Part shown: in pieces, positions 10,111-57,547 of the stretch
Layout: every line of letters starts with the position of its first letter
Numbering within the stretch: the stretch's first letter is position 1
NCBI RefSeq assembly: GCF_037042905.1
Contig: NC_087245.1
Coordinates: 24,740,001 to 24,804,000, forward strand
DNA: 64,000 bases
Direction: 5' to 3'
Source: Lytechinus pictus
Taxonomy: Eukaryota
Program-made: the position numbers and the translations under genes
Notes under the pieces: model-generated
Databases searched by the model: none
The model's input: the letters and a program-made list of their open reading frames with translations, nothing else
Told to the model about the DNA's origin: nothing

Positions 10111-10171
10111 AGAAGGTTAAGGTGACTTAGGTCCAACTGGGAGACAAAAAAGTTAAATAATACTGATATTA

Positions 10172-10472
10172 TTGTTATCATCATCATCATCATTTATCAT
10201 TATCATCATCATCATTTATCATTATCATCATCATCATCATCATCATTTATCATTATCATCATCATCATTTATCATTATCATCATCATCATATATCATTAT
10301 CATCATCATCATTTATCATTATCATCATCATCATTTATCATTATCATCATCATCATTTATCATTATCATCATCATCATTTATCATTATCATCATCATCAT
10401 CATTTATCATTATCATCATCATCATCATCATCATTTATCATTATCATCATCATCATCATTTATCATTATCAT
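10172..10472. repeat. Compound (ATC)n microsatellite with a recurring ATTTATCATT interruption
   Basis: Read directly from the sequence. Confidence 0.97.
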
Positions 10473-11253
10473 GTTTAGCAATATGATTATTATCAGTCAT
10501 ATGTATGTAGGGGTATAATTCCGCCGGGTATAAGAGAGTTGAATTTCACTTTCAAGGCACCTATACAGCTCTCATGCTTCATTTTTATGTTTCTTTATTC
10601 ACATTCTGTGTTAATCAACAAAGCAAGAATGTGAATTAAAAAAATCATAAAAATGAATTAGGAAATTGTAATTCACTGTTATAATGGTTGAGTATACGTG
10701 ATGATAACAACGATGATGCCCGAAAAAAACATTTCTCAAATATCAATGTTATTGTTGTTATAAACGCAATGGTGTCAATGACTTATCGTAAGGTTCGTTT
10801 ACACCTTCCTATTATGAGATCAATCTTAAGTTTCTGGTTATGTCTATCGATCATATCTATATACTGATTCATCTGGGATAAAGGAGAAGATCAAATGAAA
10901 TATTTAGGATATCAGCTGAAGAGAATGATAATTACGTTGATACGTGTATAACGAAGAATCAGGAAAGATATACAAATGTTCATATCAATTGTCACTCATC
11001 TATATTGCTGTAAACAGAGGCGACCAGAAATCGGGTGAATTATGGTTGGTAGTTGCTGGTTGCGGCGCGCTGATGCGTTTCCATGGTTACGCCCTATAAA
11101 ATAAAAAAATCTAATTGTGAATTTCACTAAATTGAAGCAAAGAAAATACGAGTAAATTGATTAGAGAATTCAGGTCTTTGAAATGAGGCGTATGATTTTT
11201 TTTAGAAAATCCTTGAATAATGATCGAGAACTCAAATTGACCAAATGAACAGA

Positions 11254-38800: not shown

Positions 38801-41800
38801 ACAGCTTGTATAAACAATCCATTACCGGTAATCATGCTTTAAAACATGACTGAGAAATGCAGAGAGTCAAGGGAAAATATATTAAAAACTCTAATAAAGA
38901 CGATATCTCTTCAAAATCGTAAATTGCGAATGATCAACGGCATACATTTTTTTTTATAATCATCAATATTATTTTGCAATGTTGTCGCGACAAAGAATAG
39001 TGATCAAATACTGGCCAAATACTTCGCAAATAAATTATTTTATCAGATTGGGGTTTAGAGCATTCTAACGAAGAAGTTTTATCGTCTTTATGTGAGTTAA
39101 AACTTAAAGATAAATGGTTAAATAGTCACACATGGAAGCATAAAACTTCACCCAGTTCTGCCAGTTATCAATCATCTACGCTAGCTGAATTATACATTTT
39201 CACATATTCTTTTATTCTCAAAGAAAACACACAGGAGTGCAAGCCTGCGGCGTCAATCACGATAAAAGCAATCGTTTTACATTCATAATAGCATTGAGCT
39301 CTTTGAAAGCTCCAATGTGCAGATTAATTGTTGATTTCATATCAGATTACATCATTGTAGAAATGAAGTACATAGTCCCCAAGCATGCCAAACAGGCGCA
39401 ATCAGACACAAACATTTATTGTTCATCTACCCATTCGATAATTCGATATGAAGGCAGAATATTTTTAGGAGTTTCCTCTTGACAACATTTTTTTTTATTG
39501 CGAAATAAAGGACGTTTGTGGTTCAACTTTTGTTATATTTTGGATGGAGCGAACATGGAAATATGATTGATTATTGGTATAAGTGAAAAAGAATATCATG
39601 AGTTTGCTTGTCATACAGCTGTATGCAGTTTTGTCAGGCAACCAATGATTTTACGTTCTCTTTGAAGGGTTTGGTAATCCCGATTTAAGGGTAGGGTAAA
39701 AGGACATCCACCTTGCTCTGAACTCTGGCCAGGACCTCTCAGATTCTTTCTCTGACAATCCCTCCATTAAGACATCGAACTTTAAACAAGCGTTTTAATT
39801 GAGGAGAGATCTAATTAGCCTGGTAAAAGAAGATAATAATAATAATAATATAGGGTATTTATATTGCGCACATATCCACCTTGTTAGGTGCTCAAGGCGC
39901 TCCTATATTACCCGGCTAAGCTAGGCGTTGGATGGATAATAAGAACTCCACTAAACTGTACTATAGCCTCCTGAACTATCTCCGTCCTGTGCAAGTCAAT
40001 TAGAGTTTTCACCAACATAACTATTGTCATTCTTATATCACATGCTATTTTTATTACTTCAAGTATATTTCACTTTAATCAAATGGAATATTCCTTTTTG
40101 TGTTACAGGTTCAATCTATCACCGGTCATAACATCACTCTAAATGTTCAAGCTAATGGACCTCAGTTATTAGAAGAATTTTGTCGGTGGCAGGCTGGATT
40201 CAATCCTATCAATGATGCTCATCCAGAACATTGGGACATCGCTACTCTTATTACTAGGTAATATTTAAAAAACATTCCTTAAAGGAGGAAAAAATCTTTG
40301 AAACAAGCTAGCTTGTTAGCTTGTGTCAAGTGTGAAAACGGGAAAACAAAATCAAAGAATAAGATCGGTAAATACTGAGAGCAATCTAACAAACAATAAA
40401 GAAAGTTATGCTCATAATGCTTTGGAGATTCCCATATTGACAATGCGAACAAGATCTTTGATGTCACGCAATTCCATTTGGACACTCAAAATATACTCCC
40501 AAAATATTTAATTTGTAATTGTAATGATGATACAAAGTACTCTTCGTCCGTGATTTATTTTGTGAACCAGTAATTACACACCTAGCCATAAAAAGAACAC
40601 GTTATCATACGGATAGAATTAATAAAAGCGATGATTTCAATGAAATATTGCTCGTTTTGGTGACACCACACATCTTGGTCGCATTGCCAGTAGGAAGATG
40701 TAGATGTCCACTGCATTAGTAGTCTCAACATTCAGATGCTCATAATTTTCCCCATTTTATTTCTAAAACTTTCAATGACCGGTTTCAATTGATTTGTATG
40801 ATTTATATAATTCAACTGATTCCAAGGGTTTCTTATAATAATCATGAACAAGAGAGATGCATTAATACAAAGATATTAATACAAATGTTAATGATATATT
40901 GAATAAGTGATTGGATGATTGATTGATTTATTTATTTATTGATTAATAGTTTGTCGATTGGTTGGTCGATACTTTGATTAGCAATGTATAGATTAAAATA
41001 ATTGATTTATTATTCGATGTATTTCCATTACAATCTATGAAATATTTTTGTAAGCTAATTCATCATAATTATGTTTAAATTATGTTTGATTGGTCATTTT
41101 AGTGAAGTGTGATTTAACGAAGCGTTCATTCTTAATCTCATTTTCTACAGAAAAGATTTATTCAAGTTATCAGGAACCTACCGTGATACTAACCTACTTG
41201 GAAGGGCATACATCGGGACTACATGTCAACGCTCATTACAATGTTCAGTAAATCAAGATGATGGCCTTACTACAGGTTCGGTTATTGCTCATGAAACAGG
41301 ACATAAGTAAGTCTTTGTTATCATCTTAGCCGATGAACTTTATGTACTCACCTTTCGACAAAACGATTAAGGAATATTGTTCGGTTGGATATAATAGCGA
41401 TTGCCATAATTTTTTTTTTTTTTTTTTTTTTTTTGGGGGGGGGAATTCTGGGGGCGGGCTATGTTTTTTTTCCCCTATATGGTATCAATGTTGAGAATGT
41501 TGACAATATTATTATCAATCTGATGGGTATGTATATGTAGATAAAATATAAAATATTTGTTTTACCTATTATATCTTAGCAAGACTAAGGCGCTTTTTAA
41601 AATGGCTAGTTGGGCCACATAGGCGTACAAACAAAATAATAATGCGATTAGAAAAACTTTATCCCCCCAAAAAAAAAAATCACCTGGTTGCCATTTTTGT
41701 CTCGCCTGCATAGCAGAGCGAGACTATAGGCGCCGCTTTTCCGACGGCGGCGGCGGCGGCGTCAACATCAAATCTTAACCTAAGGTTAAGTTTTTGAAAT

Positions 41801-44800
41801 GACATCATAACTTAGAAAGTATATGGACCTAGTTCATGAAACTTGGACATAAGGTTTATCAAGTATTACTGAACATCCTGCCTGAGTTTCAGGTCACATG
41901 ACCAAGGTCAAAGGTCATTTAGGGTCAATGAACTTAGACCATGTTGGGAAAATTATTTTCAAAATCTTAACCGAAGGTTAAGTTTTTGAAATGACATCAT
42001 AACTTAGAAAGTATATGGACCTAGTTCATGAAACTTGGACATAAGGTTCATCAAGTATTACTAAACATCCTGCCTGAGTTTCAGGTCACATGACCAAGGT
42101 CAAAGGTCATTTAGGGTCAATGAACTTAGACCATGTTGGGAAAATTATTTTCAAAATCTTAACCGAAGGTTAAGTTTTTGAAATGACATCATAACTTAGA
42201 AAGTATATAGACCTAGTTCATGAAACTTAGGCATAAGGTTAATCAAGTATTAGTGAACATCCTGCTCGAGTTTCAGGTCACGTGACCAAGGTCAAAGGTC
42301 ATTTAGGGTCAATGAACTTTGGCCAAGTTGGGAGTATTTGTTGAATTACCATCATAACTTTGAAAATGTATGGATTTAGTTCATGAAACTTGGACATTAG
42401 GTTAATCAAGTACCACTGAATATCCTGTGCGAGTTTCAGGTCACATGACCATGGTCAATGGTCATTTAAGGTCAATGAACTTTGGCCGTGTTGGGGGTAT
42501 ATGTTAAATTACCATCCTAGCTCTGAAAGTTTATGGATCTAGTTCATAAAACGTGGACATAAGAGTAATCAAGTATCACTGAACATCCTGTACGAGTTTC
42601 AGGTCACATGACCATGGTCAAAGGTCATTAAAGGTCAATGAACTTTGGCCGTGTTGGGGGTATTTGTTGAATTACCATCCTAACTGTGAAAGTTTATGGA
42701 TCTAGTTAATAAAACTTAGGATATAAGAGTAATCAAGCATCACTGAACATCCCCTGTGAGTTTCAGGTCACAAAACCAAGTCAAAGGTCAGTTAAGGTCA
42801 ATAAACTTAGGCCATGTTGGGGTAATTGTTGAAGTGCCATCATAACTTTGAAAGTTTATGGATAGAGTGAATGAAATGTGGACATGGGTGTAGTTGACAG
42901 TCTTAAGTCTCCGTTCAAATGTCATGTATGGTCAATGAACGTGGTATTATGTCATTATATGAATGATGTTTTTGTGAATGATTATTTTATAGTAGTTTTC
43001 AAAGTTAGCACTGCTGCTATATTAAATTGCGTAATGCAGGCGAGACTGCCAGAGGCGTTCCACTTGTTGTGTAATAGCATGCACACTTCATGTCATATTT
43101 CGTTTTCTTTTTGTTTTATTCTTTTTTGCTTGTGTACACAGTTTGAATCTCCATCATGATCCTGACTATGGGTGTAATAACGGACATCATGTCATGTCAT
43201 CAGCCAGACCTGTCGGCGTGCAGTCTTTCAAGTGGTCGCTCTGCAGTGCACAGCAAATAAAAATCTTTCTTACGTAAGTTATTCGATGGTGTTTCTGCAT
43301 TTATTGATAATTCAAAACATAAAACCACAGAAATCATCATGATCATAGAATATAATATAAAACACATACAAAATGATTGATCAAATCATAAATTGTGACA
43401 TTAACATATAGATAATATACATGATTCATGTTAATACAATTAAATATAATTGAACTGCAGGGGCCAGCTATAATAAGCTAAATGCCATAAAAATAAACAG
43501 CCAGTATTGGTGAGGCTGTGGAATGAGTTTCATTCACATTATCAGAGTTATAAAAATGAAGTATCAAAATTATTAAGATATATCAAATCAATATCCAAAG
43601 GCACTTGCCAATTTTTACTTTTATTTTGTAGACTAATGAGTAAAACTGCAAAAATGAGGGTACTTTGCAGATTCATGGGGGGTCCATTTTGGAAGGTGTC
43701 GGCTGGTATTTTCTAGCAGTCATGATGTCAGTTTCTATATGATTGTAATGTACACCCACGCTTATACCATGTAACTTATCAAATCATTGGCCTGCACTAA
43801 TTTCTGACTCGGCCTTCGCTTGCTTTAAATTGAAATCAAATTCGATATTAACATTCAGATGACAATTCTAGTCCTTGCTCAGGACAAAATTTGAATCTTC
43901 TTGTCAGATCTTATTCCAATTTCTGCAACGAAAACCAGATATTATTTTAGACAGATATTTGAAACAAAATACAGACCCTTCCCTATTATTGTCCCTAACC
44001 TAAATTTAAATATGATATTTAGTTTTCTATTTTCTTTCCATGACAGTAATCGGCTATCATCTTGCCTCAATGATGCACCAAGTATTGACGATCCAGAAGT
44101 AGACTTGTTAGTTGTGGATGACCTTCCGGGTCAACGATACAGTCTCCCAGCCCAATGTCAGTTGGCCTATGGAGCTAGCTCAACCGTGTGCTCACAATCT
44201 GTAAGATTCGAATGAGAAGGGTTTTTTTATAAAAAGTATGTTAAATATGACCTTCCAAACCGAAAATTAGAAGATAGGCAGAAGAGAAGCGCTTTCTTAG
44301 CCAATGGCAATTTAGAGACATATAAATCAAATTATAAACCAATTGACAAAATTCTAATGCAAAACTTTGGAACGTTGTGGCCTAGTGGATTAGTCTCTGA
44401 CTTTGAAAGTTACTATTATTTATCAAATGCAAACGAATTTAAACGAATTCAACCAATTGTGCAAGAAAATACTTTTTGTTTTAAATTTTATTTCAAAGAT
44501 CTGTCTGCATCTACAATGTGCCACTCTTTGTTACCATACTGTATGTTTCTTTTTTTCTCAAATCATCCAAGCAGGTATGTGGAAGTCTAGGATGCCAGGA
44601 AGGTGGTTACTGTCATTATTCTGGAATCATGATCATGGAGGGAACAACCTGTCGTCCTGATAAGGTATCATTTAATTAAACAGCCAATTAAAATAAATGT
44701 TTATTAAGATCTTTGATAGTCATTAATTTAACATGTGTCATGGTAGATTCCAACTGTCTATTCAAATAATTTATTTTAGAGTGGTAAAGATATTCATAAT

Positions 44801-47800
44801 AAGCGGATACTGATAATAACATTTTATATCTCAGATAGTATTCAACAAATCAACTTAATGATCATTCTTCAAATGTATTCACGATCTTAAACAGTATCTT
44901 GCTGTATAGAAAATTAGAAAATGATATCATCTTAAGCATGTTAAGAATGGGCGTTGTGGCGTGCGCCTGTAATCCAAGCTATGTCGGGAAGTTACAAATT
45001 GATGCAGAGGTTCGAGGTTCGAGCCCTGGTCACGTCTTTCGGATGGTGAGGTTTAAGGTCGGTCCCAGATGTAAATAATCATATCTGATTGATACACGTC
45101 TGACAAAAACTCAAATACACACATGTTAAGAATAAAAACAACAATGTTTTCCATATAACCAATGTTTGAAGAAAATTGCACTTGTTTAAGGAAAGAAAAA
45201 ATGTTTAATATATTGATTTTGGCCTTTTCTCCTTGCAATATGACTTTGTTTAATGTCTCCTGTGACAATATGTTATTTCTCTGTTCCATGCATGTATGCA
45301 GTGGTGTGTAAGCGGTAAGTGTGTGGCAGTCAGCGATGGACTACCGGGCCCTGTTGACGGTGGTTGGTCGGAATGGGAACGTCACTTCAGTGAATGTTCT
45401 AGATCTTGTGGGACAGGGATTCGAGTAAGAAAGAGAAAATGCAACAACCCTACCCCCGTGTACGGAGGTCTCGCGTGTCAAGGTGAAGGGCGGGATGTTC
45501 AGCTTTGTAATATGATGGTAAGATCAAACAAAATTTATAATACGTAAATACAATGAAACTACCTAATTGTATTTTTGTTCTTAAAAATTTGACTCCGCCC
45601 CTCCTCCCCCCACCCCAAACAAAACATGTGCCGACCAACCCTAATTTCCATCCCTTTTCTACCCTTGTCAACCTTTTTAACATGAAAAAAATATATAACA
45701 ACAGGGGAATTTCTCGCTGCACTTAAATCTTAGAATATTTATACAAGAGATTTACAGTACATACAACTTTCCGGCAGAGAAAACCCCGCAATATTATTCA
45801 CAAGCTTTTTTGCAGGTATTTTTTATATGCCTTGCTCACCTATCTCTGCCAATAATGTCTTTCAAGGGTCATAGCCATGAAATAGGAGCTTGCATGGCCA
45901 TCAGAATATTCGTAAAATAACCGCACCATTTTTGCTGCTTTTTGCTTATAGAGATGATGTAAAGTAATTGGATATCTATTGTTATTTTCAGTCGTGTCAC
46001 AACGTAACATTGGATGATTATAAAAATGAGCAATGTGCTGCAACAAACGGCTTAAAATTCAACAATCAGTACTATACATGGAGAGCCTTCTTATCATCGT
46101 TGCTCAAAGGTAAATATCACATGCAGAAGACGAGCCCCCAAACCTCCCCCATATATATGTATATAAAAGGAGACAGGGTGGCGCCAAAGTGGGGAAGGGG
46201 TGACCCCCCTCCTCTCTCTTTCTCTCTCTCCACCGCGATTATTCAAGTAGTGAAGGGGGAGAAGAGGAGGAAAAGGGGAAAAAACATAAAAAGTGGAAGA
46301 AAGGGCCATGTATAAGATACTTTTCAATTGAGAAAAAATGACATCATATTTAGGTCAGCCCCTATCAAAGTAATGGTGTCGCCCTTGTGCACATACACAC
46401 ATTCCACTCCAATTCTACTTGGGCAGGGTACAAGCATTGCATCCTGATATTGTCAGCTCATTCAATTCTTGATAATCAAAATATGCAGATATTTCTTTTA
46501 TTTTGATTGTATATTGACCACCCAAAATAACTGTATATCCTCCGAATCTTGTCTTAGGGTATACGGATTCATAATATCTATATAGTGAATTTGAATAGTG
46601 GCCGGCATTTTTAAGGCAATTTGTTGGAATGTTCCCCAGGATGGAGAAAGTGCATACATTGTGTGTGGACATGCCAGGATACGTTATATAAATATAAGTA
46701 TTATTATCATTATTAGTTACCAAAACTTTATATAGGCTTTAAGATTACCCTGATATTGTCGTGACCAACTTCTTCTTAATCGCTCAGATAACAACCAGCG
46801 TGAATCATATTCTATATTCTTGACAAGACTATTGACCATTTTTTTAACTAACCAAGATTCAATGTTTTGTATGAGTCTATCACATTGAAATTAGGGTATT
46901 AATAATGATAAGATAGAAGACAATAAGATATTATGGTATCAAATTTCTCCTCAAGTTTAAATCTTTACCACTCTAACACCAACAGGTAACAATGTTTGCA
47001 AGCTTCAATGTATATCAAATGCAAACTTCTACGCCCTCCGTGAGCCAGGGATGTATGCAGACGGTACACTATGCTGGCATCATGAAATTGGAGATCAAAG
47101 ACTAACAAAAGCCTGTGTCGACGGAATTTGCAAGGTAATTCTAATGCTTAAATGCATACCGTTTGATCAAATCATTTTACGTGAAAACGACAGAATTACG
47201 GTTACGGGGAGGGGGCTGATGTTGCGTTTGACCATGGAGGTCAAAAAGCGCCTCCACGATTTGACTTTGACTTTAAGCGAAAGGTCTATTTAATTTTCAG
47301 ATAAAAGGATCCATAAATCTTTGTAATTAGATAAACCATAGTTAAAATCACTGTAAAACTCTGTGAATTTTAAGGAGTTTGCTGACGCCCGTCACTCTAA
47401 CAACTATAGTTCAAGTTTTAAGAAGTTTTGAAAAGTGTTGAATATTTTTGGAGATTTCAAACAAGTCTAAACAACAACGTCTTGTTAGAGTGATGGGTTT
47501 AAACAAGGTGCTTCCAATTTTTACAGCAGTTTTTTTTATATACAATAACGAACCTTCGGAAATACGATTGCATCATGCCAAAGTGAGCATTTTCCTCTTC
47601 CATCGTCCTCTTACTTTATAGGAGTTTGGCTGTGATGGAGTGATGGGCTCTGGGCGTATCAAAGATGTATGTAGTAAATGTGATGGCTCTGGAAGAACGT
47701 GTAAGAGACATATGGGAAGAATTAGAAACGTCGGAGCAGTGCATGGTAAGAACATGGAGGTAAAATGGTAAGATTTTTATTTGTCATTCAAAAATTTTCC

Positions 47801-50800
47801 ATCACTATAACAAAGAGGTCGGCGTCAGGATATTGTTATAGGAGAGGTGGGACAAGACAACCGAAATTGGGATGATTTCATATTTTTAAAATCCATTATT
47901 ATTAAATCGTTAGAAAATTTCTTCTGGAAAAAAGGAAAAAAGGTTCCTGCAGCAGTCTGGAGAACACATGTAATCTTACATTGCGCAAAATTACAGAAAA
48001 TTGGTATATGGACTCTGAAACCTTACAAATTACCAGTAATAAAACCCTTTTTCCCCCCTATTTAACAAAAGAAGTTGCAGAAAACATCCTGTTATAACAA
48101 TTCACAAAATGATTCTGTATTTTTTCTATGAAGTTTTTGGGGGGACAAAGTAGTCCACGATCATAATGTAATGATGTAACTATTTTTCGCGATTAGTAAA
48201 AATGACAAAAGGAAATTAATGTGTTCCTATCTAAGAATTGTATTATTGAAACTCTAAATTACTATGACGTAAATGAAATTAGTTTTGAAATCAATAAGGT
48301 TGAATGACTTTTATAATTACATTTAAAGTTATTGCTCTTTTATTGTTAATTTTTCTTTTATTGTTCATTAATGTTTGCAAATTCCAGTAGTGGTTCAATT
48401 CAATTAATTTAGTCGTTTCAATCAAAAACTTTGAAAAATGTACATTTATCATTTAAGAATCCAATTATATAGGAATTGAAGACAAAATACCCAAAACACA
48501 AGGGTAACAAAAGAAAAGAATAAGATAAACTATGACAATCAAAGAAATGAAAAATGGCGCACCTGCCGAAAACTTATTGTAGCATTAATGTGTCCAAAAA
48601 TATAAGAAATTGCTGTTTGATGGCTCAAATTCGTTCTTCTTTTTATTTCAGATTTTAAGACATTTCTTCAAATTCCAGTGAATTCGACAGGAATCAAGAT
48701 TACGAATCAGAATCTTCGATACACCCATATGTGTGAGTATTCATTTTGTTTCTCGTAGTATCAGATAGATTAGAATTACCACCATCTTTGCCATCATCAT
48801 CGTCGTCGTCGTCGTCATCACCCAGGGGCCGCGGAACCGGGGGGCTGGGGGGGCTTCAGCCCCCCCACTTTTTTCCAAAACTGTGTACAAAAACGTAAAA
48901 ATGACCATATGATTGTGATTTTTAGCATGGTCAGCCCCCCCCCCCCCACTTTTGGCTCAGCCCCCCCACTTTGAAAATCGTTCCGCGGCCCCTGTCACCT
49001 TCATAATTATCATGTCTATCCGTACCATCATCGCCTTGATCATCTTCTCTTTCATCATTACCTTCACATTTTAATTATGAATATATCTCTATTCCGCGTT
49101 ATGAACTCGTTTTATCAAGTTCATTGAAACTCGTTTGAGGCTGTCATGTTTTCAAGCACATTTTGCGTAAATAATGACATTCCTTCTTTTGCATTTAGAC
49201 AAGGTAGTATGAACCATGATTAATGCATATCGATTATAATGTTTTGGTCGCATTTGCGAACATTACTTTAGTTGATTTTTTTCGCTATTTCCTAGATTTT
49301 TTCCCTTTTTTATCATATGTTATATTTTGAAACGTTATGTGTTTATAGATAAATATGAATGCAGAAGATCATAAATCATACAAACGACTTCACTGATCAC
49401 TAAGATAGTTTTGTCCTTATTCTGCAGGGGCCGTGGAAACGGGGGGGGGGGGGCTGGGTGGAATTCAGCCCCCACTTTCTTTCCAAAACTCTGTACAAAA
49501 ACGTAAAAATTACCATCCGATTGTGATTTTGTGCATGGTCAGTCCCCCCCTTTCAAAATCGTTCCGCGGTCCCTGATCTGCCCGTCAATCCGATCTCCAT
49601 CCCGGTGTCTCCATCTCCCATCATGCTCTCTCAACTTCGTGCTCCTTACCGAACTCATCCCTTTTCCCGATTTCCAGCGGTTGAAGCCGACGGTGAGATA
49701 GTATTCCGCGGCGAGATGTTCATCCCTCCTCTGAGCCAGCGATACAGCCACAGTGGTATGGTCATCAAGTATCTAGCTGATGCCTTCCACAACAGAGAGC
49801 ACATCTGGGTACTCTCCGGTCCCACCACTGCTGTCTTGGATGTATCCGTGATCTTACTACACAATCCTAGATACCTTGGGAGTCGGGTCAAACCGGATAT
49901 TACATGGGAATACTACGCTCCTGTTTCTGAAACCGTCTTCTACTAGTAAGTCGGTCTCTTGATAGGAGGGAGTTCACGCACCGCGATGTAGAACAGATTC
50001 AAGAACATAGAAAATGTATATTGTAATGATCTTCATGACAAACAGCAACCAAGAAGTCTTTGTCGAAAATTGGTAAATCAAAACAGCAGTTTTCAACCTG
50101 GTCTCTGGACAAATACTATTTGCAATTTTTCGTCAGCTCCGAAACTTAAGACAAAAGTGCTTTTCTTGAATCCGTTTTGCGTCTCGGTGCCGCGGAAACT
50201 CCGCAATCTTGCAATGTCAAACGCGTCGGTCGCAGTATCAACGCACATATAAGATTAGTTTGTCTCAAAGCTTCTAATGTTATAAAGCCTTGTTATCATG
50301 TTGATTCAGATGATCATGGTTTTGCAGTTTTACGAAAAGAAACATGGTCCATGTGAACTTTGTATTACTATCGCTCCTAATTTTGTAAATAAATATAGTG
50401 AAATTTTCATTTTGCACTATTTCTATTATCTTGGGGCGTAGTTTGTTGACATTTACCATTTATGACTTTACATACGATTCTTTGTTGTTTAGTTGGCAGC
50501 ATGAAACTGTCAGTGGGTGCTCAGTGACGTGCGGAGGAGGGATCAAAAGCAGACGAGTCTTTTGTGTTGAGGTGAGTATTTATGATTAATAGTCAGCAAA
50601 CACGTAATATTTCACGTTTCTTTGAATTTTTGTATGGTGGTATAGTTGTACAGATAACATAGAGGTTTCTGGTTCACAAAGTTCTTAGTCCAGAAAAGAT
50701 CAGCTGGGATTGTGAAATGGCGATAAATGGATGATGAATGGATGAGAGAGAAGAGATAGAAATTTAGTAGATTACAAAAAAGATGGTTTCTATATGAAAC

Positions 50801-53800
50801 AAAATAAAATCTCAATTGAAATTGTGTGTTAAAGACGGAATGACGGAATAAGCCTTATGTTTTTCGTGCATAATATTATTCTAACAATTATGAAATAATT
50901 GCTTCTGGAAGGAAAATATGCCGACTCAAGAAATATTATTTTATTAGAGCGTTTGTGCCAAATTTTCGCCGCGGCCGCCGGAACGGCCACTGGGGTTATA
51001 TCTTGTCAACATTATTTGCTTTATTAAAATTGATTATGGGTAACTTAATATTAAATATTGAAATATTTCGACAATAACTAGAAAACGGCAAAGTCTGCAA
51101 AATTTAATGCATTGTGCTTAATAACTTTCATTAAAATAACCAAAACTTTCCTCCAGCATTTTATAATGTATGTATATTTTTTTATCTGTGCAAATAGAAT
51201 ATTGGAGGTGTAGCAGCCGAAGTCAGTGATTTATTTTGTGACCCATCTAAGAGGCCCTCAGAGCATCGTAGCTGCTCCAATCAACCCTGCCCAGTACCTA
51301 TATGGGTTGTTGGACAATGGAGTCTAGTAAGTTGATAAGATATTTATATACACTTATTTTATTTAAAAAATTATTTCAATATAAACTCTAACGTTGACCT
51401 TAAAATGGACCTTTAACCTTACCATGTGACCACCGACTGCAACATAACAGGGAAATAAAATACAGATGTCTGAAATAAAGTATAATGGGAGTCTTAAAAA
51501 TTTGCACATTTTCATTCGTAAAATGTGAGCAGTTCACTTAACCTCAATTTTGATGTCATTTTTTTTTAATTCTCGTGAAATTTCCTTTCAGAAAGAGTAT
51601 ACTATTTTATGGATAGGGTGAATACTTTCAAAGTTCTGACCATTTTTATACCGATAGATGCGCTATCATTAGCTTTGGGTTACGTAACACAAAATGGGGC
51701 GAGTTCAAGACACATGGCCTTTAAAGAGGCTGGTGGGTTGTTAATAAAACCGTAGGGCATTTAGATAACATTTACGCTTATTATAACAATGTTTTCATTA
51801 TTTTTTTTTATATCTTATCATCTTTCTGTTGTTTTTTTTTCAATGAAAGATCATAGGGACAGTCACCCGTCCCAGAAGCGGCTCAAGAGTTTAATTTGAA
51901 ATCTTTAGAATCAGTAATGAAATCATTTGTTTCTGAAAATTAATGACCTGTTTTCATTACTCGGTTATTTATTTGAATGAAATCCCCCATGACACAGAAG
52001 AACAATCTCAATAATATAATGCGTTAAGTTCTTATTTTGCCCTGGCAGTGCTCAGCGACATGTGACGTGGGAAGGAGAAAACGTGCGATGGCGTGCCTTC
52101 TGAATACAACGGGGGAACCAGTGCCTGGATTGTGCGATCCGAACCTCCAACCTGCAACCGAAGAACAGTGTGTTGAGGCACCCTGCCCCAGACCTACATT
52201 GGATGATAATGGTATTATCCTGTTCCGAGCCTTGCATGTGATTGTCATGTTATGTGTGAATGCATGCTTGCAGCTTTGAAAATAAATATTTTACAGTGTG
52301 AATAACAACTAACGCATGTATATTAAGGATCATAATGAGAGATGAATGACCATAATGTTATCTTTTATAATCAAATGAAAATCACTTTTGATAGCAGAAA
52401 CAGAGTACGGCTTCATGAGCCGAATTATAAAGAAAAAGTTCATATCTAACCTAGATGAACATCTTTTGGTAAAGGCTAATTTCTCTTACATGTGTCGTAG
52501 ATCTTGTGAGTAATAGAGCACATTGGTGATTGCTCATGCATACTGATTTAATCAGGCTTCTCTTTGAAAAGGAAAATTATGACAGAATCCGATTTAGTAG
52601 AAGATATTGGCTAATATTACAAAATTTTCAAAACCGGCCTTTCAGGTCAGTACATGATTTTGCATGTCATGCAATTTTAACAAAAAATGAATTTTGACGT
52701 GTTTTGTGTACTAATTGCATGCTGCCTATGTTTAACCAACGTACCTGCTTGATTTACTTTGTTGCTATCCAGTGACCATGTTAATACATTCTGCAAGCTC
52801 TTCAATGGACGCGAGTGACTCGATCACCCCATCAACATCCACCTCGCAGCTGACATCATATAAGACGACAGCGACGGCGACGTCGCATCATTCTATATCG
52901 CACAGCATGACACAAACAGTAGACAATGAATTGTATGCCATAGATAGTGATTCATTTACATCCGAGTCTCTTTCTTATATTAGTGTCGTCGGCATATTTT
53001 CTACAGATGCAACCAGAAATTCTGAACCACCGAATAACCCATCAACGACTAGCAGTGAGGCCGAGACAACTGTTGGAGCTACGAACATGCATGCCACTCT
53101 TTCTAGCAGTTTTCCAACCACCAGTTCAACATCCGATGGATTAAATAAGATTACATCTCAAACAGACACTCGTTCATCCCCGACTACAACCGCGGCAAGG
53201 AAATTGATATCAAAGTCACTTTATCCAAGTCTTTTAGTACCATCCTCAACTATATCCAATAGAGATGTCCCGTCCTCTTCCTCATCTCCGATATCAACCA
53301 CATCGTCATCCTTAGCGACATCATTGCCCACAACACCCATGCCCTCATCGCCGTCGCAATATCTATTGTCCCCGACATCATCATCATCATCATCGTCGTC
53401 GGGATTATTGACTGCCCACTTACCTTTAAATGAAGATTTACATGGTAACCAACTCCATGACGTAATATATTCTTCATATAGGGATGAAAATGTATTGGAT
53501 GAATCAGTTTTGCATCCCAAACTAGAAACCAACCATGCAACGCCGCCTGCATCAGTAGTGGAACCAGCATCGTCATCAGTGTCTATGCATGGAAATGTAT
53601 CTTATATCTTTTTGCGAGTCATTGTAGTTGCATGGATCGTCTTAGTTCTGCAATCGTTACCTCTCTTGGAAATACACTGAAAAGACTATAATGCATGTTC
53701 ATTGTTACGAGTATAAACCAGTTCTAGCCACCCTTGCCTAGATTTATCAAATAGAAAACTATTTATAATAGTGGAATTATATATTTATGGACTTGATTGC

Positions 53801-56800
53801 CTTGCCTTCCCTTGCCATAAGTCAGTTTATTGAAGAATAGCGATTCTACTGCATGATGCCTGTATACCATTTACCTTGAGTTTTGATGAATGAATGATTA
53901 TCACCTACCTCACACCTCTACTCTCACCAAAGCATGGCTCTTTCTCATTCCTTATCACGTATGTATATACTGTGTCATCTTCATTCTATGATTAATCTAT
54001 AATTTGTGCTGAATTTGTCGCTAACATGTAAAGATGTGTTTATGAAAATGTTAATCAAGTTTCCCTTTGAATTTCATGAAACAATTGGATATCTCCTATA
54101 TCCCCCACCCGAAGTGATGTGTTGAAAGATAACACTACCGTCTTACCCACAACGTTATACTATAAGTGATGAGGGAAAGTGATGGGGAAAATAATAAGCC
54201 ATTGAAATAGAATTTTTTTCAGGAAAAAGTACTTTTAGATAACAATCGATAAGAATAGTAAACGTGTTATTGATTTATTGCTTTCCAAAGAGTTTTCAAA
54301 ATTTTCCAAAGAAATAAATAAAAAAAAAAAAAAATGTAGTATAACTCAGAAAGCTATATAGCATTATAAAACAGTTTATTAAAAAAAAAACATACATCAG
54401 ATCATAATTAAAAACACTTTAATAACGTGGATCTAAACGTAATACTTCTGAAAATTTTCTATTAGATCGGAACTCAATGTAAATGTAGTTTCTTGCATGG
54501 TAATTAATCCTCAATAATTCTTTCTCTTTCAGTTGATATCAGATGCAATGGTATGACGAGAAGAAAGAATGGATACATTGATCAGATAAGCAGATCTACT
54601 GGTGGTGACTCGTGTACTGCTGTGATTGTAGCTCCTGTTCATAAAGATCTTATTTTCACCATTAAACAGATGTATATAGACTGTGATGCAGGTTAGTAAC
54701 CCCTTTCTTCCCCTTCAAGTACTCTAGTAAATAGGTCTGTTCTCGGCGGGGTAAGACTCAATGAAAAATAGGTGCAGAGAGTTGACAAAAATCGTTCAAT
54801 CTTAAACAGCCATTTTTTTAATTAAAATGCAACTGTGATGAAATCGGAAAAAACTGCATATATTTATTAGTAAAACATGCTATATGATTTTTAATGTTAT
54901 TGTTTATCTCTCCGGCTCCGTAATCATCGACGGGAAAATGAATTCGAGTGTGTTCAACACACGAAATATTTATCGGGATATTCGATTATAAGCTGCTATG
55001 TAAATTACATCCTTTATTGTATGTGTTAACGAATAAATGAAAACAAATTGATAGCGGTGCTGTGCCTCAGTGGATATATCTCCGTACTTTGAACCACAAG
55101 GTCCGGGATTCGAGGCCCATCAAAACACTCGAGGCTTTGGCAAGGCGTTTATCTACATGTTCCACTCTTCACCCAGGTGTAGTAAATGGGTACCCGATAT
55201 GAGAAAAAATCCTAGAATGCCCGAGCTTCCGATCAGGGTCGCCGTGCAAAAACCTGGGTAATAGTATATGCAGCGCTTAGAAACATTGTGTTAAGCTTTA
55301 TATTATTTGTTACTCTTCTTATTATTAGTAGTAGTATTGTTGTTCTTGTTGTTGTTTTGTTATCATCATTTCCCCTCTGTGTCACTGTATTGTATTGAAC
55401 AAAATTGCTGGGGTGTCTTTTCTACTTTTGAAGGGTAACTAACCAGACACACTACCAATTTTACATAAACTTGACTTTTCAGTACCTCATTTAACATGTT
55501 GTTTCTTGATCAGACTTCTTTATATTTTAGTAAATATGTGTTTATACCTGCAGTTATGCCATTACTTCATGAAGCTTATATCTCATTATATAATTTTGTA
55601 AATAGTGGAATGAGCAATAAAACACACTAAATCCTTTAAAATTCCTAAGTAAAATTATTACACTAAACTAGTTAAATTGTGTTTATTGATCAACAGCACA
55701 TTACTCAAAAACAGATGATAGCTTTTTCTTATTATAATGATATATGAAAGTCGCCTGAATAGTCTTTTATTTTGTTTCTTATATATTATTTTTCTTTAGG
55801 TGAATCATTAGAAATAAGAATAGGGGAGGAAAGAAGGAGATTTTGTGGTAAACAACACCAAGTCACTATGAAAACAGAGAGTAATGTGATAGCGATAGAA
55901 CATAAAACACATAAACAAGGACATGGATATCAACTTCTTTATCATTCAAGAAAGAGTCGACATAAAAATGGTAAGTATATTGGCAGTATTTTTTATCTTG
56001 AAACTGTTGTTTTTATGTGTAGGTTTTACTTCCCTCCGTCAGTAGTGTGAACAAGCAAAATAATCTCCTAAAAAGTGCATTATTCCTTACGTTATATTTT
56101 TCATAGAATGACCCGAAAAGAACGTTTTAAACTGTTTTACATGCAGGCAAGTTGAGATATTTGCATGCAGGAACTCCTGATATAATTATGTTTGTTAATA
56201 ATCAAATGATGCGATCGCGAAGAGTGAACTTGCCATGTAGGAAAATGGGAAGAGGATACTTATATCAGTAAGTAAATAGTACGAGAGCGAAGTGCGAGCT
56301 CAAATCTTTCGGAGATTAAGAGCCGAAACTTGGACATTTGAATTAGCTCTATTTGTATTCATGAACAAGATGTATATCTCAATTATACAAGATGTATATC
56401 TCAATTAACAAAATAACGAAAGCTCCGAGCGCGAGCAGATCCGTCCCTTTTTTTTTTCCTTTATTTTTGCACCGTCAATATGGAGAGCTGGCCGCTTCGA
56501 TTCCCCACTGATCTGCCTTCTGCCTGTACAGAGTACAGTCCTCGGTCATTTTCACAACTACAAGACACAACATTACTCGATAGCCTATTCAAACAAAAAT
56601 ACGTTATTCATTTATTCGTTTTAGTAATTCTGAGATACATTTTTTATTTTTCTTTTGCAGACTGTGATCAACTAATAACAGATAGAAAGACTATCGTTAC
56701 GAGTCCAGAGTGGCCTTCTAAGTACCCAAGTAATATGAATTGTACCTATCGGTTTATAGGGGATCCCGGTAAGAGGATTACACTCAGGGTTAAAGTATTC

Positions 56801-57547
56801 AAACTTCAAGGAAAGGAACCAAGATGTAAACATGATAAATTAGAGGTGAGGAGCTGATTTTCTTGAAAATAATTGTTGATTTATAGATTTGTTTGGAGTT
56901 TTCAATAGAATTATTTAATTGCTGTTGAGAAGAATAGTTTAATTTCAGTTGTTTCCTTTTTACATTCACTTTTCGTAAATTCCCATGTACAGGACATATA
57001 TACACTTACCCCCCCCCCCACACACACACACACACAACACACACACACCCGTACCCTCACACATACAAACACAAATTTGATTCTTCTATTTCCTCTCTTC
57101 GCTTCCCCTATCAGATATCCCCTGCATGCTATAAAGAAAAAAAAACACCTAACCTTGATGATTAGCACTTCAATCAAATGCTTTGAAAATCTGTCATTCA
57201 CTTTCAATGTCAATTTTTCAGTTTTTATTTTCCACAATTCAATCGAAAGCGATATTCTGGGAGAAAAAAACATTCAAAACAGTAAAATGCCAGGATAAAA
57301 ATAATATACATGTATCTGAAATATAAAAAATACCAAATAATCTTACTATATTAATTTTGACCATTCATTTCTCCATTTCTTATTCTTTTAGATGTTGGAT
57401 CTATTAACGGGTGAGAAGGTAGCACGATGTGGATCATCGCCTTCCAAATACAGCCTGCGATTGTCGGGATACGATGGATTAATGCGATTTATTTCAGACG
57501 AAACTGTACAGCTGGCTGGATTCAAAATAATCGTATATATCAAATAA
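17794..57547 (+). CDS. Multi-exon ADAMTS-family metalloprotease with two C-terminal CUB domains (ADAMTS13-like architecture); about 1201 aa without the mucin exon, about 1425 aa with it
   Basis: 26 exons joined at GT-AG sites with matching phases and no in-frame stops. Prodomain, HExxHxxNxxHD zinc motif, Met-turn, WSxW...CSRSCG TSR, Cys-rich, spacer and CUB motifs are recognisable. The first two exons are the least certain. Orthology not tested. Confidence 0.93.
18544..18645. mobile_element. Small Tc1/mariner-type MITE
   Basis: TA-CAGT...ACTG-TA ends; AAACCGACTCCA / TGGAGTCGGTTT inverted repeat. Confidence 0.65.
19901..19953 (+). CDS. Putative exon 2, end of signal peptide (GLILNSCSSFLYASSINL)
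   Basis: Strong donor CTG|GTAAGA, phase 0 into exon 3; the acceptor (taag) is weak and an alternative acceptor ends at 19925. Confidence 0.5.
20509..20569 (+). CDS. Exon 3, prodomain N-terminus (RQIDLSEEEINVYTNHQHIE)
   Basis: cttttcag acceptor, AAG|GTACGT donor; phase 1 joins exon 4 to give EDYDFISP. Confidence 0.75.
20862..21102. mobile_element. MITE with about 48-bp TIRs and TA flanks
   Basis: TCCGGTGTTGATTTAACACCAGCCGGGAATCTATAT and its exact reverse complement. Confidence 0.85.
22198..22493 (+). CDS. Exon 4, M12B prodomain (DYDFISP...FNAFGDAFHLKLEKN...CHYYG...ASISTCKGL)
   Basis: Typical ADAM/ADAMTS propeptide motifs; cttacag acceptor, TTG|GTAAGA donor. Confidence 0.95.
27008..27206 (+). 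CDS. Exon 5, prodomain (TGVISHGNSEFYIKPL...RIKR...HIIYRRRFRR...FCASED)
   Basis: Prodomain motifs YIxPL and HIIY; consensus splice sites, phase 0/1. Confidence 0.93.
27772..27890 (+). mobile_element. tRNA-derived SINE fragment
   Basis: TAGCTCAGTCA.TAGAGC A-box-like, GGTTCGATTCCC B-box, no acceptor-stem closure. Confidence 0.7.
30076..30794. mobile_element. piggyBac-like non-autonomous element
   Basis: TTAA-CCCTAAGACT...AGTCTTTTTAGGG-TTAA. Confidence 0.8.
32352..33640. mobile_element. hAT-like non-autonomous element with internal ~120-bp degenerate tandem repeats and a nested MITE (33335-33574)
   Basis: Perfect 8-bp TSD TATGAGTC (32344-32351, 33641-33648); CAG...CTG ends. Confidence 0.8.
34332..34709. 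mobile_element. TTAA-flanked MITE (Kolobok-like)
   Basis: TTAA-AGTGATTGGTTAAC...GTTAAACAATACCT-TTAA imperfect TIR. Confidence 0.6.
35844..36425. mobile_element. TTAA-flanked MITE with about 190-bp TIRs (Kolobok-like)
   Basis: TTAA-AGGGATGGTCCGGGCTGAAA...TTTCAGCCCGGACCATCCCT-TTAA. Confidence 0.9.
36768..36946 (+). CDS. Exon 6, start of catalytic domain (QKYLEFMVMIDKSMVEFHGDDAINYTMTLMNI)
   Basis: Reprolysin domain N-terminal motif; acttcag acceptor, GTAAGT donor, phase 1/0. Confidence 0.95.
37361..37450 (+). CDS. Exon 7, catalytic domain (VSRRFAEPSLGVSMRVAITKFIILDTDTPM)
   Basis: ADAMTS FxxPSLG motif; tttgcag acceptor, GTAAGT donor. Confidence 0.95.
40109..40257 (+). CDS. Exon 8, catalytic domain (LEEFCRWQ...DAHPEHWDIATLITR)
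   Basis: ADAMTS FCxWQ and HxDxAxLxTR motifs; phase 0/2. Confidence 0.96.
40283..40836. mobile_element. Degenerate copy of the 1026-1609 MITE family
   Basis: Shares CAATGCGA.CAAGATCT.TGATGTCAC and ATCTTGGTCGCATTGCCA blocks and terminal sequences. Confidence 0.75.
41151..41306 (+). CDS. Exon 9, catalytic domain up to AHETGH
   Basis: KDL...LGRAYIGTTC...CSVNQDDGL...VIAHETGH; phase 2/2. Confidence 0.97.
41694..43068 (+). mobile_element. Helentron-associated (HINE/DINE-1-like) element with internal tandem array
   Basis: Starts in a T-run; subterminal inverted repeats GTCTCGCCTGCAT / ATGCAGGCGAGAC; 5' hairpin; (GGC)n; 192/163-bp repeats; ends CTTGTT. Confidence 0.8.
43142..43273 (+). CDS. Exon 10, rest of zinc motif and Met-turn (NLNLHHD...HVMS...FKWSLCS)
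   Basis: Completes HETGHNLNLHHD; WSxCS motif; phase 2/2. Confidence 0.97.
44047..44200 (+). CDS. Exon 11, end of catalytic domain and start of disintegrin-like domain (CLNDAP...LPGQRYSLPAQCQLAYG)
   Basis: ADAMTS LPGxxYSxxxQC motif; phase 2/0. Confidence 0.96.
44575..44664 (+). CDS. Exon 12, disintegrin-like domain (VCGSLGC...EGTTCRPDK)
   Basis: CxxLxC...EGTxC pattern; tandem aagcag acceptor allows a start at 44572. Confidence 0.93.
44949..45121 (+). mobile_element. SINE with 7SL/Alu-like head, 12-bp TSD
   Basis: TSD CATGTTAAGAAT (44937-44948, 45122-45133); head GGGCGTTGTGGCGTGCGCCTGTAATCCAAGCTATGTCGGGA; B-box GGTTCGAGCCC; short CA tail. Confidence 0.85.
45302..45517 (+). CDS. Exon 13, central TSR (WCVSGKCV...VDGGWSEW...CSRSCGTG...CNNPTPVYGGLACQG)
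   Basis: Canonical thrombospondin type-1 repeat; phase 0/0. Confidence 0.97.
45992..46109 (+). CDS. Exon 14, Cys-rich domain (SCHNVTLDDYKNEQC...YTWRAF)
   Basis: ADAMTS Cys-rich motif; phase 0/1. Confidence 0.95.
46986..47134 (+). CDS. Exon 15, Cys-rich domain (CKLQC...DGTLC...CVDGICK)
   Basis: CxLxC, DGTxC and CVxGxC motifs; phase 1/0. Confidence 0.96.
47622..47745 (+). CDS. Exon 16, end of Cys-rich domain (FGCDGVMGSGRIKDVCSKCDGSGRTC)
   Basis: GCDxxxGS...DxCxxCxG motif; phase 0/1. Confidence 0.96.
48652..48732 (+). CDS. Exon 17, spacer domain (DFKTFLQIPVNSTGIKITNQNLRYTHM)
   Basis: Spacer IP...I.I pattern; tttcag acceptor, GTGAGT donor, phase 1/1. Confidence 0.92.
48823..48994. mobile_element. 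MITE with CAGGGGCCGCGGAAC TIRs and 5-bp TSD (hAT5-like)
   Basis: Perfect 15-bp TIR; TCACC on both sides. Confidence 0.85.
49425..49575. mobile_element. Second, more diverged copy of the same MITE
   Basis: Same TIR and body; flanks TTCTG / ATCTG. Confidence 0.8.
49678..49945 (+). CDS. Exon 18, spacer domain (...GPTTAVLDVSVIL...PDITWEYY)
   Basis: Cys-free spacer with GPT and PxIxxEY motifs; the TA|GTAAGT donor removes the apparent stop codon. Confidence 0.94.
50493..50571 (+). CDS. Exon 19, distal TSR 1, first half (YWQHETVSGCSVTCGGGIKSRRVFCVE)
   Basis: CSVTCGGG motif; phase 2/0. Confidence 0.95.
51198..51326 (+). CDS. Exon 20, end of distal TSR 1 and start of TSR 2 (CDPSKRP...CSNQPCP..WVVGQWS)
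   Basis: TSR motifs; phase 0/0. Confidence 0.95.
52049..52211 (+). CDS. Exon 21, distal TSR 2 (CSATCDVGRRKRAMAC...CVEAPCP)
   Basis: TSR motifs; donor ATG|GTATTA, phase 0/1. Confidence 0.93.
52773..53680 (+). CDS. Exon 22, Ser/Thr-rich mucin-like exon; internal phase-1 donor after 53444, or read-through to a hydrophobic C-terminus and stop at 53680
   Basis: atccag acceptor in phase with exon 21; 302 open codons, strongly S/T/P-biased; CATG|GTAACC donor; tail VSYIFLRVIVVAWIVLVLQSLPLLEIH*. Confidence 0.8.
54533..54691 (+). CDS. Exon 23, CUB1 first half (CNGMTRRKNGYI...CTAVIVAP...IDCD)
   Basis: Divergent CUB pattern; long polypyrimidine acceptor; phase 1/1. Confidence 0.85.
55054..55305 (+). 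mobile_element. tRNA-derived CORE-like SINE (related to 15242-15505)
   Basis: GATTCGAGGCC B-box-like; TTTGGCAAGGCG...CACCCAGGTGTAGTAAATGGGTACC. Confidence 0.7.
55800..55970 (+). CDS. Exon 24, CUB1 second half (ESLEI...RFCG...SNVIAIEH...GYQLLY)
   Basis: CUB C-terminal pattern; phase 1/1. Confidence 0.9.
56661..56845 (+). CDS. Exon 25, CUB2 first half (CDQLI...VTSPEWPSKYPSNMNCTYRF...CKHDKLE)
   Basis: Canonical CUB SPxxPxxYPxNxxCxY motif; phase 1/0. Confidence 0.96.
57392..57547 (+). CDS. Exon 26, terminal, CUB2 second half (RCG...MRFISDETVQLAGFKIIVYIK*)
   Basis: CUB FxSD...GF motif; TAA stop at 57545-57547. Confidence 0.93.
   Translation: MLDLLTGEKVARCGSSPSKYSLRLSGYDGLMRFISDETVQLAGFKIIVYIK

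Follow-up and report, generated by a model that had tools for sequence, protein, structure and literature searches.

The 64,000-nucleotide stretch of Lytechinus pictus DNA analysed here (the window) carries an ADAMTS gene modelled in 24 exons, with the last TSR in exon 20 (Table 1). Pfam matches and the zinc motif HETGHNLNLHH indicate that exons 2-19 encode a propeptide, metalloprotease, disintegrin-like/Cys-rich region, TSR1, spacer and TSR2; the ADAMTS families PF01562, PF01421, PF17771, PF00090, PF19236 and PF05986 score above their cut-offs, and RIKR and RFRR motifs are present alongside HETGHNLNLHH. Exon 1, which is 76% identical to residues 1-29 of the S. purpuratus protein P0004 and runs in phase 0 into exon 2, has a hydrophobic predicted product resembling a signal peptide, and is absent from the RefSeq model P0007, which begins elsewhere. 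Because this exon lies outside the window, the TSR exon numbered 21 in a preliminary description of the locus becomes exon 20 of 24.

Judged by its sequence, the gene encodes a sea urchin member of the ADAMTS protease family that resembles ADAMTS13. The best match of P0007 among solved structures is human ADAMTS13 (PDB 6qig, E 5e-86, residues 228-825), a likeness to be read knowing that few ADAMTS have structures of such length, and the annotated names of related proteins differ (ADAMTS10-, 13- and 16-like). Two C-terminal CUB domains are described as a mark of ADAMTS13 in vertebrates (PMC4349717). Unlike human ADAMTS13, the urchin gene has only two TSRs after the spacer. When exon 20 is joined directly to exon 21, exons 21-24 encode two CUB-type domains and the product is 1196 aa long, ending TSR-TSR-CUB-CUB; Pfam CUB scores above its cut-off for residues 1068-1174 only, while tandem-CUB structures match residues 1018-1175. 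This skip form would be a secreted protease.

Table 1. Features of the ADAMTS gene and its cassette exon (window coordinates unless stated otherwise)
Feature	Position	Strand	Remarks
Exon 1, signal-peptide-like	L012:4057-4143, outside the window, ~5.9 kb upstream		tblastn with P0004
Exons 2-19	20509..51326	+	chain matches P0007 from residue 13
Exon 20, last TSR	52049..52211	+	phase-1 donor common to skip and inclusion forms (exon chain; joints from 52211)
Ten sense TGCATG elements	52233..54499	+	52233, 52261, 52661, 52716, 53088, 53586, 53629, 53692, 53850, 54494
Cassette exon, 1186 nt, own stop codon	52773..53958	+	phase-1 start; X15 and X5 contigs
S/T/P-rich Cys-free stalk, predicted disordered	52773..53401	+	44% S+T in first 223 residues
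Acidic membrane-proximal segment, conserved	53402..53560	+	27/53 identities with each of three homologues
Internal donor candidate ATG/GTAACC, in frame	53444..53445	+	contigs unbroken across 53444 in X15 and X5
GPI-type signal candidate	53570..53680	+	small-residue triplets, spacer, hydrophobic helix to end; TGA 53678-53680
Non-coding 3' part of cassette exon, 278 nt	53681..53958	+	ends at donor CAC/GTATGT
AATAAA adjoining A-run	54313..54318	+	intronic, unsupported as poly(A) signal
Exons 21-24	54533-54691, 55800-55970, 56661-56845, 57392-57547 (54533..57547)	+	spliced contigs, Pfam

An optional exon lies between exons 20 and 21. Two data sets, X15 and X5, were treated as RNA on the grounds that exons are joined in them at GT..AG while introns stay empty, and the splice evidence is that of their assembled contigs. 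Spliced contigs of two organisms from two studies contain the skip joint 52211>54533 as well as the included exon 52773-53958: X15 record 3 covers 52772-53958 with 0 differences, X5 has the joint 52211>52775 with TT between, and the joint 53958>54533, bounded by GT..AG, is found in both. At the RNA level, one ADAMTS13-like gene makes CUB-tailed and stalk-tailed RNAs via a 1186-nt cassette exon. Contig depth, a poor measure, makes inclusion the minor form in X15 (3.8 against 20.8 for skipping) and places the two forms at similar levels in X5 (54.8 and 26.9 for the inclusion joints, 52.7 for the skip joint). Raw-read runs X19 and X20, of which about 6/100 each was used, gave reads on repeats and are uninformative for the exon either way.

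The preliminary description had placed the phase-1 end of the TSR exon at 52211 and acceptors at 52773 and 54533, and the sequence bears out all three; the three in-frame products it had deduced are computed as 1196 aa (skip), 1420 aa (672-nt cassette through donor 53444) and 1275 aa (read-through). Its frame, open for 236 nt beyond 53444 to the TGA with the tail it had quoted, also holds, spliced contigs cover 53445-53680, and the switch it had proposed between a CUB-tailed form and a mucin-stalked, hydrophobic-ended form of about 1280 aa stands at 1275 aa, with both forms spliced in RNA of two organisms. What it had lacked is the donor actually used, 53958/53959 (CAC/GTATGT), and with it the architecture changes. 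Because exon 52773-53958 is spliced past its own stop onto the CUB exons, it is a stop-containing cassette exon and not the alternative last exon, ending near 54313, that had been supposed. The AATAAA is at 54313 as described, but a role in polyadenylation does not follow: it is intronic, such hexamers occur at 1.2 per kb in the window, neither X15 nor X5 has contig depth over 53959-54122, and the hexamer is not kept in a partial downstream copy of the gene. Joints that go back at 54308-54335 arise from the A-rich stretch and were rejected as poly(A) evidence. The 672-nt cassette fares no better, as no joint at 53444 is among those listed for X15 and X5 and the contigs run across it. An alternative last exon with poly(A) addition near 54313, together with a 672-nt in-frame cassette, is thus very improbable, despite the hexamer, a plausible in-frame donor at 53444 whose G-N is invariant in four sequences, and a fall in X5 depth along the exon (40, 37, 27) that would allow some earlier 3' ends; against it, the joint 53958>54533 is present in 2/2 informative data sets.

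Donor 53958 appears to be conserved in S. purpuratus, since P0009 corresponds to a 231-aa frame that starts at ATG 53934 in the non-coding 3' part of the cassette exon, shares the reading frame of the CUB exons and runs through the joint (197/231 identical), and its N-terminus matches in length and register. This frame has no signal peptide, and it was read as a sign of donor conservation, not as a product.

As read from the sequence, the inclusion precursor of 1275 aa would share the catalytic half of the skip form and continue into an S/T stalk without Cys and then a hydrophobic signal at the C-terminus, predicted as one helix at the very end, leaving the CUB exons as 3' UTR. The exon's 301-codon open frame is far longer than chance would give: when its bases were shuffled 2000 times, the open frame averaged 18 codons and never exceeded 141. 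No Pfam family was found for the exon product by Pfam search. The tail, whose conservation the preliminary description had proposed as a check, is kept: in three homologues, P0016, P0019 and P0020 (one from S. purpuratus RefSeq), the frame stays open at about 40% identity despite many indels, the stop lies within 2 residues of the same position, and the tail is similar, identity being higher over the last 92 residues (44-47 identical) than over the stalk (82-87/209). Within organism B, the indels listed include -6 and net -12 before the stop and +1, -5 and +2 after it; 0/22 variant codons listed create a stop, and the stalk variants comprise 13 non-synonymous against 9 synonymous. Full-length urchin models examined all skip the exon, whose product stands in S. 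purpuratus RefSeq as a separate 'serine-rich protein', and current annotation misses the inclusion form. Thirty candidates contained no full-length annotated protein of at least 528 aa with the tail, which is weak evidence, and no match for the exon was found in Diadema. Protein-atlas searches gave scores below 0.9 throughout and serve as leads only. Two further candidates, P0017 and P0018, were discarded as repeat-rich chance matches, and the downstream copy, copy 2, was not used as conservation evidence, being partial (12/23 window exons without a match) and having stops at places matching 49905 and 53216. Besides copy 2, no paralogous tail was found elsewhere in the genome.

The layout of the tail suggests a GPI signal. 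The best shared omega candidate is S-V-S at residue 268 of the exon product, near S1242 in whole-protein numbering, preceding a spacer and a hydrophobic end. Layouts were scored by two rules made for this analysis. Under the first, the window tail passes, as do 13/1482 background frames, and 0/3 homologues pass; under the second, which was written after the tails were seen, 4/4 tails pass, against 56/2048 background frames and 0/3 ends of CUB forms. The skip form of the window gene has no anchor-like end. The same tail might instead remain uncleaved as a single transmembrane helix with a cytoplasmic end of 2-4 residues, giving a type I protein from the same splice switch. An AlphaFold2 model predicts a single confident helix of 28 residues (272-299, pLDDT 93 at 281-290) on a disordered chain, the best 19-residue hydropathy of the window tail is 2.37, a value reached by 40/1482 background frames, and the shared omega candidates imply removal of 32-35 residues, as many as in the longest of the usual cleaved GPI signals or more, which is awkward for GPI attachment. 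A transmembrane helix is nevertheless unlikely, as none of the four tails has K/R in its last 8 residues, the end is acidic, and the homologue tails are weaker in hydropathy (1.67-1.99) while conserving the small-residue run and spacer upstream.

If made but not anchored at all, the protein would be secreted as a CUB-less protease, with its mucin tail and terminal helix serving to bind matrix or a partner. Mucin segments do occur in the secreted ADAMTS7 and ADAMTS12, the omega spacing is non-standard, and P0020 tolerates three polar changes in its tail, which lower its best hydropathy to 1.67. Such a product is nonetheless quite doubtful, because soluble proteins do not usually end in a hydrophobic stretch of about 20 residues such as these four sequences keep, and because a tandem paralogue upstream has, in the corresponding exon, a predicted GPI-type end of cleaner layout. 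That paralogue has no CUB match, and its predicted phase-1 last exon carries a putative 29-residue GPI-type signal; its tail does not align with P0016 (E 2.3), and a common origin of the two tails is therefore unsupported. Anchoring by GPI or a transmembrane helix, taken together, is probable, and for GPI itself the balance is modestly favourable.

One potential control of the choice between the forms lies in a cluster of TGCATG elements around the cassette exon, where 10 are observed against 0.6-1.0 expected, and 10 in 2321 nt compare with 9 in the remaining 34.7 kb of the gene. Not one of 2000 Markov resamples reached 10, and TGCATG is the top non-homopolymer hexamer of 4096. UGCAUG has been assigned as an Rbfox-type motif (PMC12149502). 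The conserved H-G and A-W of the tail coincide with TGCATG sites, so part of the tail conservation may be exerted at the RNA level. A genome search with the PF12414 profile found no match and has no bearing on the presence of Rbfox, which is present in urchins. An Rbfox-type protein bound to the cluster may set the choice by cell type; under the mammalian rule, sites upstream of or inside an exon favour its skipping, and as most of the sites are so placed, skipping would be favoured where Rbfox is present.

Since inclusion turns the CUB exons into 3' UTR, it raises the question of NMD, which is a real rival to a protein-coding role. In this alternative the exon is a regulated poison exon, inclusion of which leads to NMD and less secreted protease, with little or no protein made from it. 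The stop lies 278 nt before the junction, beyond the 50-55 nt distance by which poison exons are recognised, with four junctions downstream and the CUB exons still spliced on; the dense UGCAUG cluster, with two sites on conserved tail residues, and the minor share of inclusion in X15 are likewise consistent with it. However, a poison exon is expected to be free of coding constraint, and here frame and tail are conserved and inclusion contigs readily assembled: 301 open codons at 40% identity with frame-preserving indels would be needless, inclusion and skipping have similar depth in X5, and in human data decay is weaker when the stop lies in an exon >400 nt (PMC12776119). A mere poison exon is accordingly an unlikely reading, and the inclusion mRNA may in part escape NMD because its stop lies within a very long exon.

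With GPI attachment as the preferred outcome, inclusion would give a disordered stalk of about 265 residues, probably O-glycosylated, followed by a hydrophobic signal that would be cut off in the ER in exchange for a GPI anchor near S1242, such that the protease would be held above the cell surface on its stalk. The anchored form would be without the CUB domains, which are described as holding human ADAMTS13 latent (PMC8051872), and, if true, anchoring would be coupled to the loss of these domains. The fullest reading, possible though somewhat likelier to fail than to hold, is a small sea urchin clade of naturally GPI-anchored ADAMTS in which the upstream paralogue is constitutively anchored and the window gene switches, by an Rbfox-controlled, NMD-evading, stop-containing exon, between two forms, one secreted, CUB-bearing and latent, the other unlatched and held on a stalk at the surface. 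If so, an ADAMTS would perform pericellular work of the kind done by ADAMs or MT-MMPs.

Splicing selects the anchor in acetylcholinesterase (H/T/R), NCAM-120, ADAM12-L/S and ADAM28m/s, and GPI-anchored metzincins exist (MT4- and MT6-MMP). These belong to other families and mostly use alternative last exons, whereas in the urchin it is an internal exon with its own stop that converts four coding exons to UTR; the inclusion form would be a naturally occurring example of a conserved coding isoform with a stop before four exon junctions. We know of no anchored splice form of ADAMTS13. Published accounts treat ADAMTS proteases as secreted (PMC4349717), and human ADAMTS13 as naturally secreted (10.1101/2025.06.12.659386); a natural, conserved, splice-controlled anchored ADAMTS, if true, would break the secreted-only rule, and would do so in the lineage whose design comes nearest to that of ADAMTS13. 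A search of mainly open-access papers for a natural anchored ADAMTS found only an engineered one, the GPI-anchored ADAMTS13 MDTCS, reported as catalytically active on cells. Like the predicted inclusion form, it is a CUB-less ADAMTS on a GPI anchor; unlike it, it is an artificial fusion to the DAF anchor, while the urchin form is natural, alternatively spliced, and has TSRs and its own long stalk (10.1101/2025.06.12.659386). One review describes ADAMs and ADAMTSs in passing as membrane-anchored proteins, with data on no particular gene (PMC10381214). GPI proteins of the CD55/DAF type, described as folded domains followed by an O-glycosylated membrane-proximal S/T region, a 5-10 residue spacer and 15-20 hydrophobic residues, have the layout proposed for the inclusion form (PMC9997660), but they are not proteases and have no demonstrated sequence relation to it, and the urchin candidate signal is longer.

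Among echinoderm proteases, sea star EBR1 reportedly has a predicted transmembrane segment, which, if true, lessens the novelty of an anchored urchin ADAMTS. Sea urchin EBR1 is, like the product of the window gene, an echinoderm M12B protease with TSP1 and CUB domains, and acts at the cell surface; it differs in its huge TSP1/CUB repeat array, and the available portion of its description gives a signal peptide and mentions no GPI (PMC13672419). The sea urchin is a tractable embryo model in which to follow both forms of the present gene.

The RefSeq protein P0007 (XP_063960013.1, named in RefSeq as Lytechinus pictus ADAMTS16-like) is reproduced from residue 13 by a chain of 23 exons at 20509-57547. 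The RefSeq model begins at 19613 and lacks a signal peptide, and an exon upstream of the window with 76% identity to residues 1-29 of the S. purpuratus protein P0004 appears to be the true first exon, carrying the signal peptide. Its addition gives an intron 1 of about 26 kb and a skip form (TSR-CUB-CUB) of 1196 aa. Beyond the complete ADAMTS domain set, Pfam reports TSRs and CUB. The protein retains an intact zinc motif, and its best match among solved structures is ADAMTS13. Intron 8 holds a tandem array of ~190-nt units with inverted relatives in L004.

Features of the ADAMTS gene and its surroundings (bare coordinates are positions in the window, which is G000:C1:24740001-24804000; L numbers are stretches outside the window and C1 is the contig)
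Feature	Position	Phase	Remark
Putative first exon	L012:4057-4143	0 (joint with exon 2)	5.9 kb upstream of window
Cassette exon	52773-53958
Complete-looking upstream paralogue	about C1:24690500-24722700		directly upstream
End of paralogue's last TSR exon	L016:1089	1	same position as in the ADAMTS gene
Predicted last exon of paralogue	L016:2494-2720 (G000:C1:24722494-24722720)	1	first acceptor passing filter
Partial, broken second copy	L008:3371 to L010:5405		about 80 kb downstream
Tandem array	41695-42880		intron 8
Short interspersed repeats	51400-51450; 55050-55270
Simple-repeat tracts	10126-10520; L016:4325-4700; L016:6130-6540

In every CUB-containing ADAMTS model seen (P0001, P0003, P0004, P0006, P0007, P0014 and P0015), the last TSR runs directly into CUB. 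Between the last TSR and CUB exons the sequence bears out the preliminary description in its exon phases and acceptors, its open frame with the tail, and the AATAAA. The product of the intervening exon is 301 residues with no Cys and 44% S+T across residues 1-223; in 2000 shuffles of the exon the longest run of open codons was 141. RNA evidence was sought in 4 of 21 listed runs over 50400-56950, of which two were informative: X15, from organism A, and X5, from organism B, whose exons differ by 2-5%. X19 and X20 are raw reads without exon coverage. X15 and X5 are not recorded as RNA, yet their exons are joined at GT..AG and their introns are empty. The skip joint 52211>54533 is present in both, at depths of 20.8 (X15) and 52.7 (X5). 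Inclusion is represented in X15 by record 3 (1245 nt, depth 3.8), which has zero differences over 52772-53958, 28 extra letters ahead and the joint 53958>54533, the upstream joint being absent among the rows listed. In X5 the exon is found as pieces at 52775-53266, 53282-53622 and 53668-53958, entered by joint 52211>52775 (TT between, depth 54.8) and left by 53958>54533 (depth 26.9). Depth in bin 53904-54122 is 55/219 of that of the exon contig in both runs, implying no run-on beyond 53958; together with the downstream joint, this makes the exon an internal cassette of 1186 nt containing a stop. Two forms thus exist, both spliced, with inclusion minor in X15 and comparable in X5 by rough contig depth. 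Neither the alternative last exon nor the 672-nt cassette proposed earlier was seen among the joints listed in X15 and X5, in which contigs lose rare forms. The short interspersed repeats at 51400-51450 and 55050-55270, the second with a tRNA-like start and SINE-like by eye, are abundant in RNA runs, with thousands of partial reads.

The stop lies 278 nt upstream of a junction, with 4 junctions downstream, and by the 50-nt rule the inclusion mRNA would be a decay target. Stops within exons >400 nt give weaker decay in human, not urchin, data (PMC12776119), and coding constraint on the exon argues against a pure poison exon. A HMMER search with the tail against 1.84 billion representatives gave 3 matches, of which P0016 alone is real (E 6e-9, 40% identity across 305 columns), and a two-sequence profile brought in P0019 and P0020 (3 matches among 7997 scored); the profile search found no match to the exon in Diadema. 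P0020 comes from S. purpuratus (XP_030830419.1, annotated as 'serine-rich protein isoform X1'). The contig that encodes it also carries the ADAMTS in split pieces, along with isoforms X2 and X3, which are CUB-only. Identity to the homologues is 82-87/209 in the stalk and 44-47/92 in the tail region, the flanking TSR/CUB part standing well above both at 279/324, and stop positions are at most 2 residues apart. Among the rows listed, organism B indels before the stop keep the frame (-6; -7 and -5, 8 bases apart) and those after it break it (+1, -5, +2). These comparisons show that the exon is coding and conserved, as is its hydrophobic end. In the non-coding end of the exon, ATG 53934 (exon part 53934-53958) is in frame with both CUB domains across the 53958 joint, giving 231 aa; isoform X2 (P0009) is also 231 aa, with 197/231 identical and the same M-A-L start, so donor 53958 is very likely common to S. 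purpuratus.

AlphaFold2, run on a four-row alignment, predicts disorder over residues 1-271 and a single helix at 272-299. The best 19-residue hydropathy is 2.37 for the window tail, 1.99 for P0016/P0019 and 1.67 for P0020, and K/R are absent from the last 8 residues of every tail. The tail fits the GPI signal layout, as given in PMC9997660, provided that omega falls on the shared S-V-S or on the serines before it, in which case 32-35 residues would be removed, a long stretch. Homologue tails passed two home-made layout rules in 0/3 and 3/3 cases, the second rule having been written after the tails had been seen, against 13/1482 and 56/2048 background frames, respectively. A putative GPI signal is more likely than a transmembrane helix; a membrane anchor of some type on the inclusion form is probable, and GPI anchoring in particular is modestly favored.

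Urchin EBR1 is an ADAMTS-like protein acting at the surface (PMC13672419). Its counterpart in sea stars has a predicted transmembrane segment. A literature search, with most subscription journals outside its reach, found no natural anchored ADAMTS, and the sole phrase match was an engineered GPI-ADAMTS13 active on cells (10.1101/2025.06.12.659386); PMC5897022 and PMC9202947 contributed nothing further. PMC4349717 describes ADAMTS as secreted and two CUBs as specific to ADAMTS13, the latency of which is maintained by CUB-spacer binding (PMC8051872); the inclusion form would presumably be freed from CUB latency.

Sense TGCATG, the Rbfox element (PMC12149502), occurs 10 times in the skipped 2321 nt (4 upstream of the exon, 5 inside, 1 downstream) versus 9 in the remaining 34.7 kb of the gene, against 0.6 expected in the skipped segment (Markov mean 0.96, maximum 5 in 2000 resamples). 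This distribution suggests Rbfox control of the cassette exon. Two sites sit under conserved tail residues, which weakens the protein-constraint reading of those residues.

The upstream paralogue has a predicted last exon of 74 residues with a short S/T-rich stalk and a hydrophobic end, a textbook GPI-type end with a single omega candidate (N-T-A, 29 residues removed); AATAAA lies 550 nt beyond it, and 0/53 other acceptor-led frames pass the same GPI rule. No CUB match was found between its last TSR exon and exon 1 of the ADAMTS gene. The paralogue may encode a constitutively GPI-anchored ADAMTS; its predicted tail does not align with that of the cassette exon. P0013 (S. purpuratus, 1428 aa) is an old gene model merging the paralogue with the ADAMTS gene, which shows that S. 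purpuratus shares the tandem pair. The downstream copy, 85-99% identical, lacks 12/23 exons and has 2 in-frame stops, and would be either a pseudogene or a mis-assembled haplotype; it retains the cassette-exon splice sites and most TGCATG sites. The simple-repeat tracts yield long spurious open frames.
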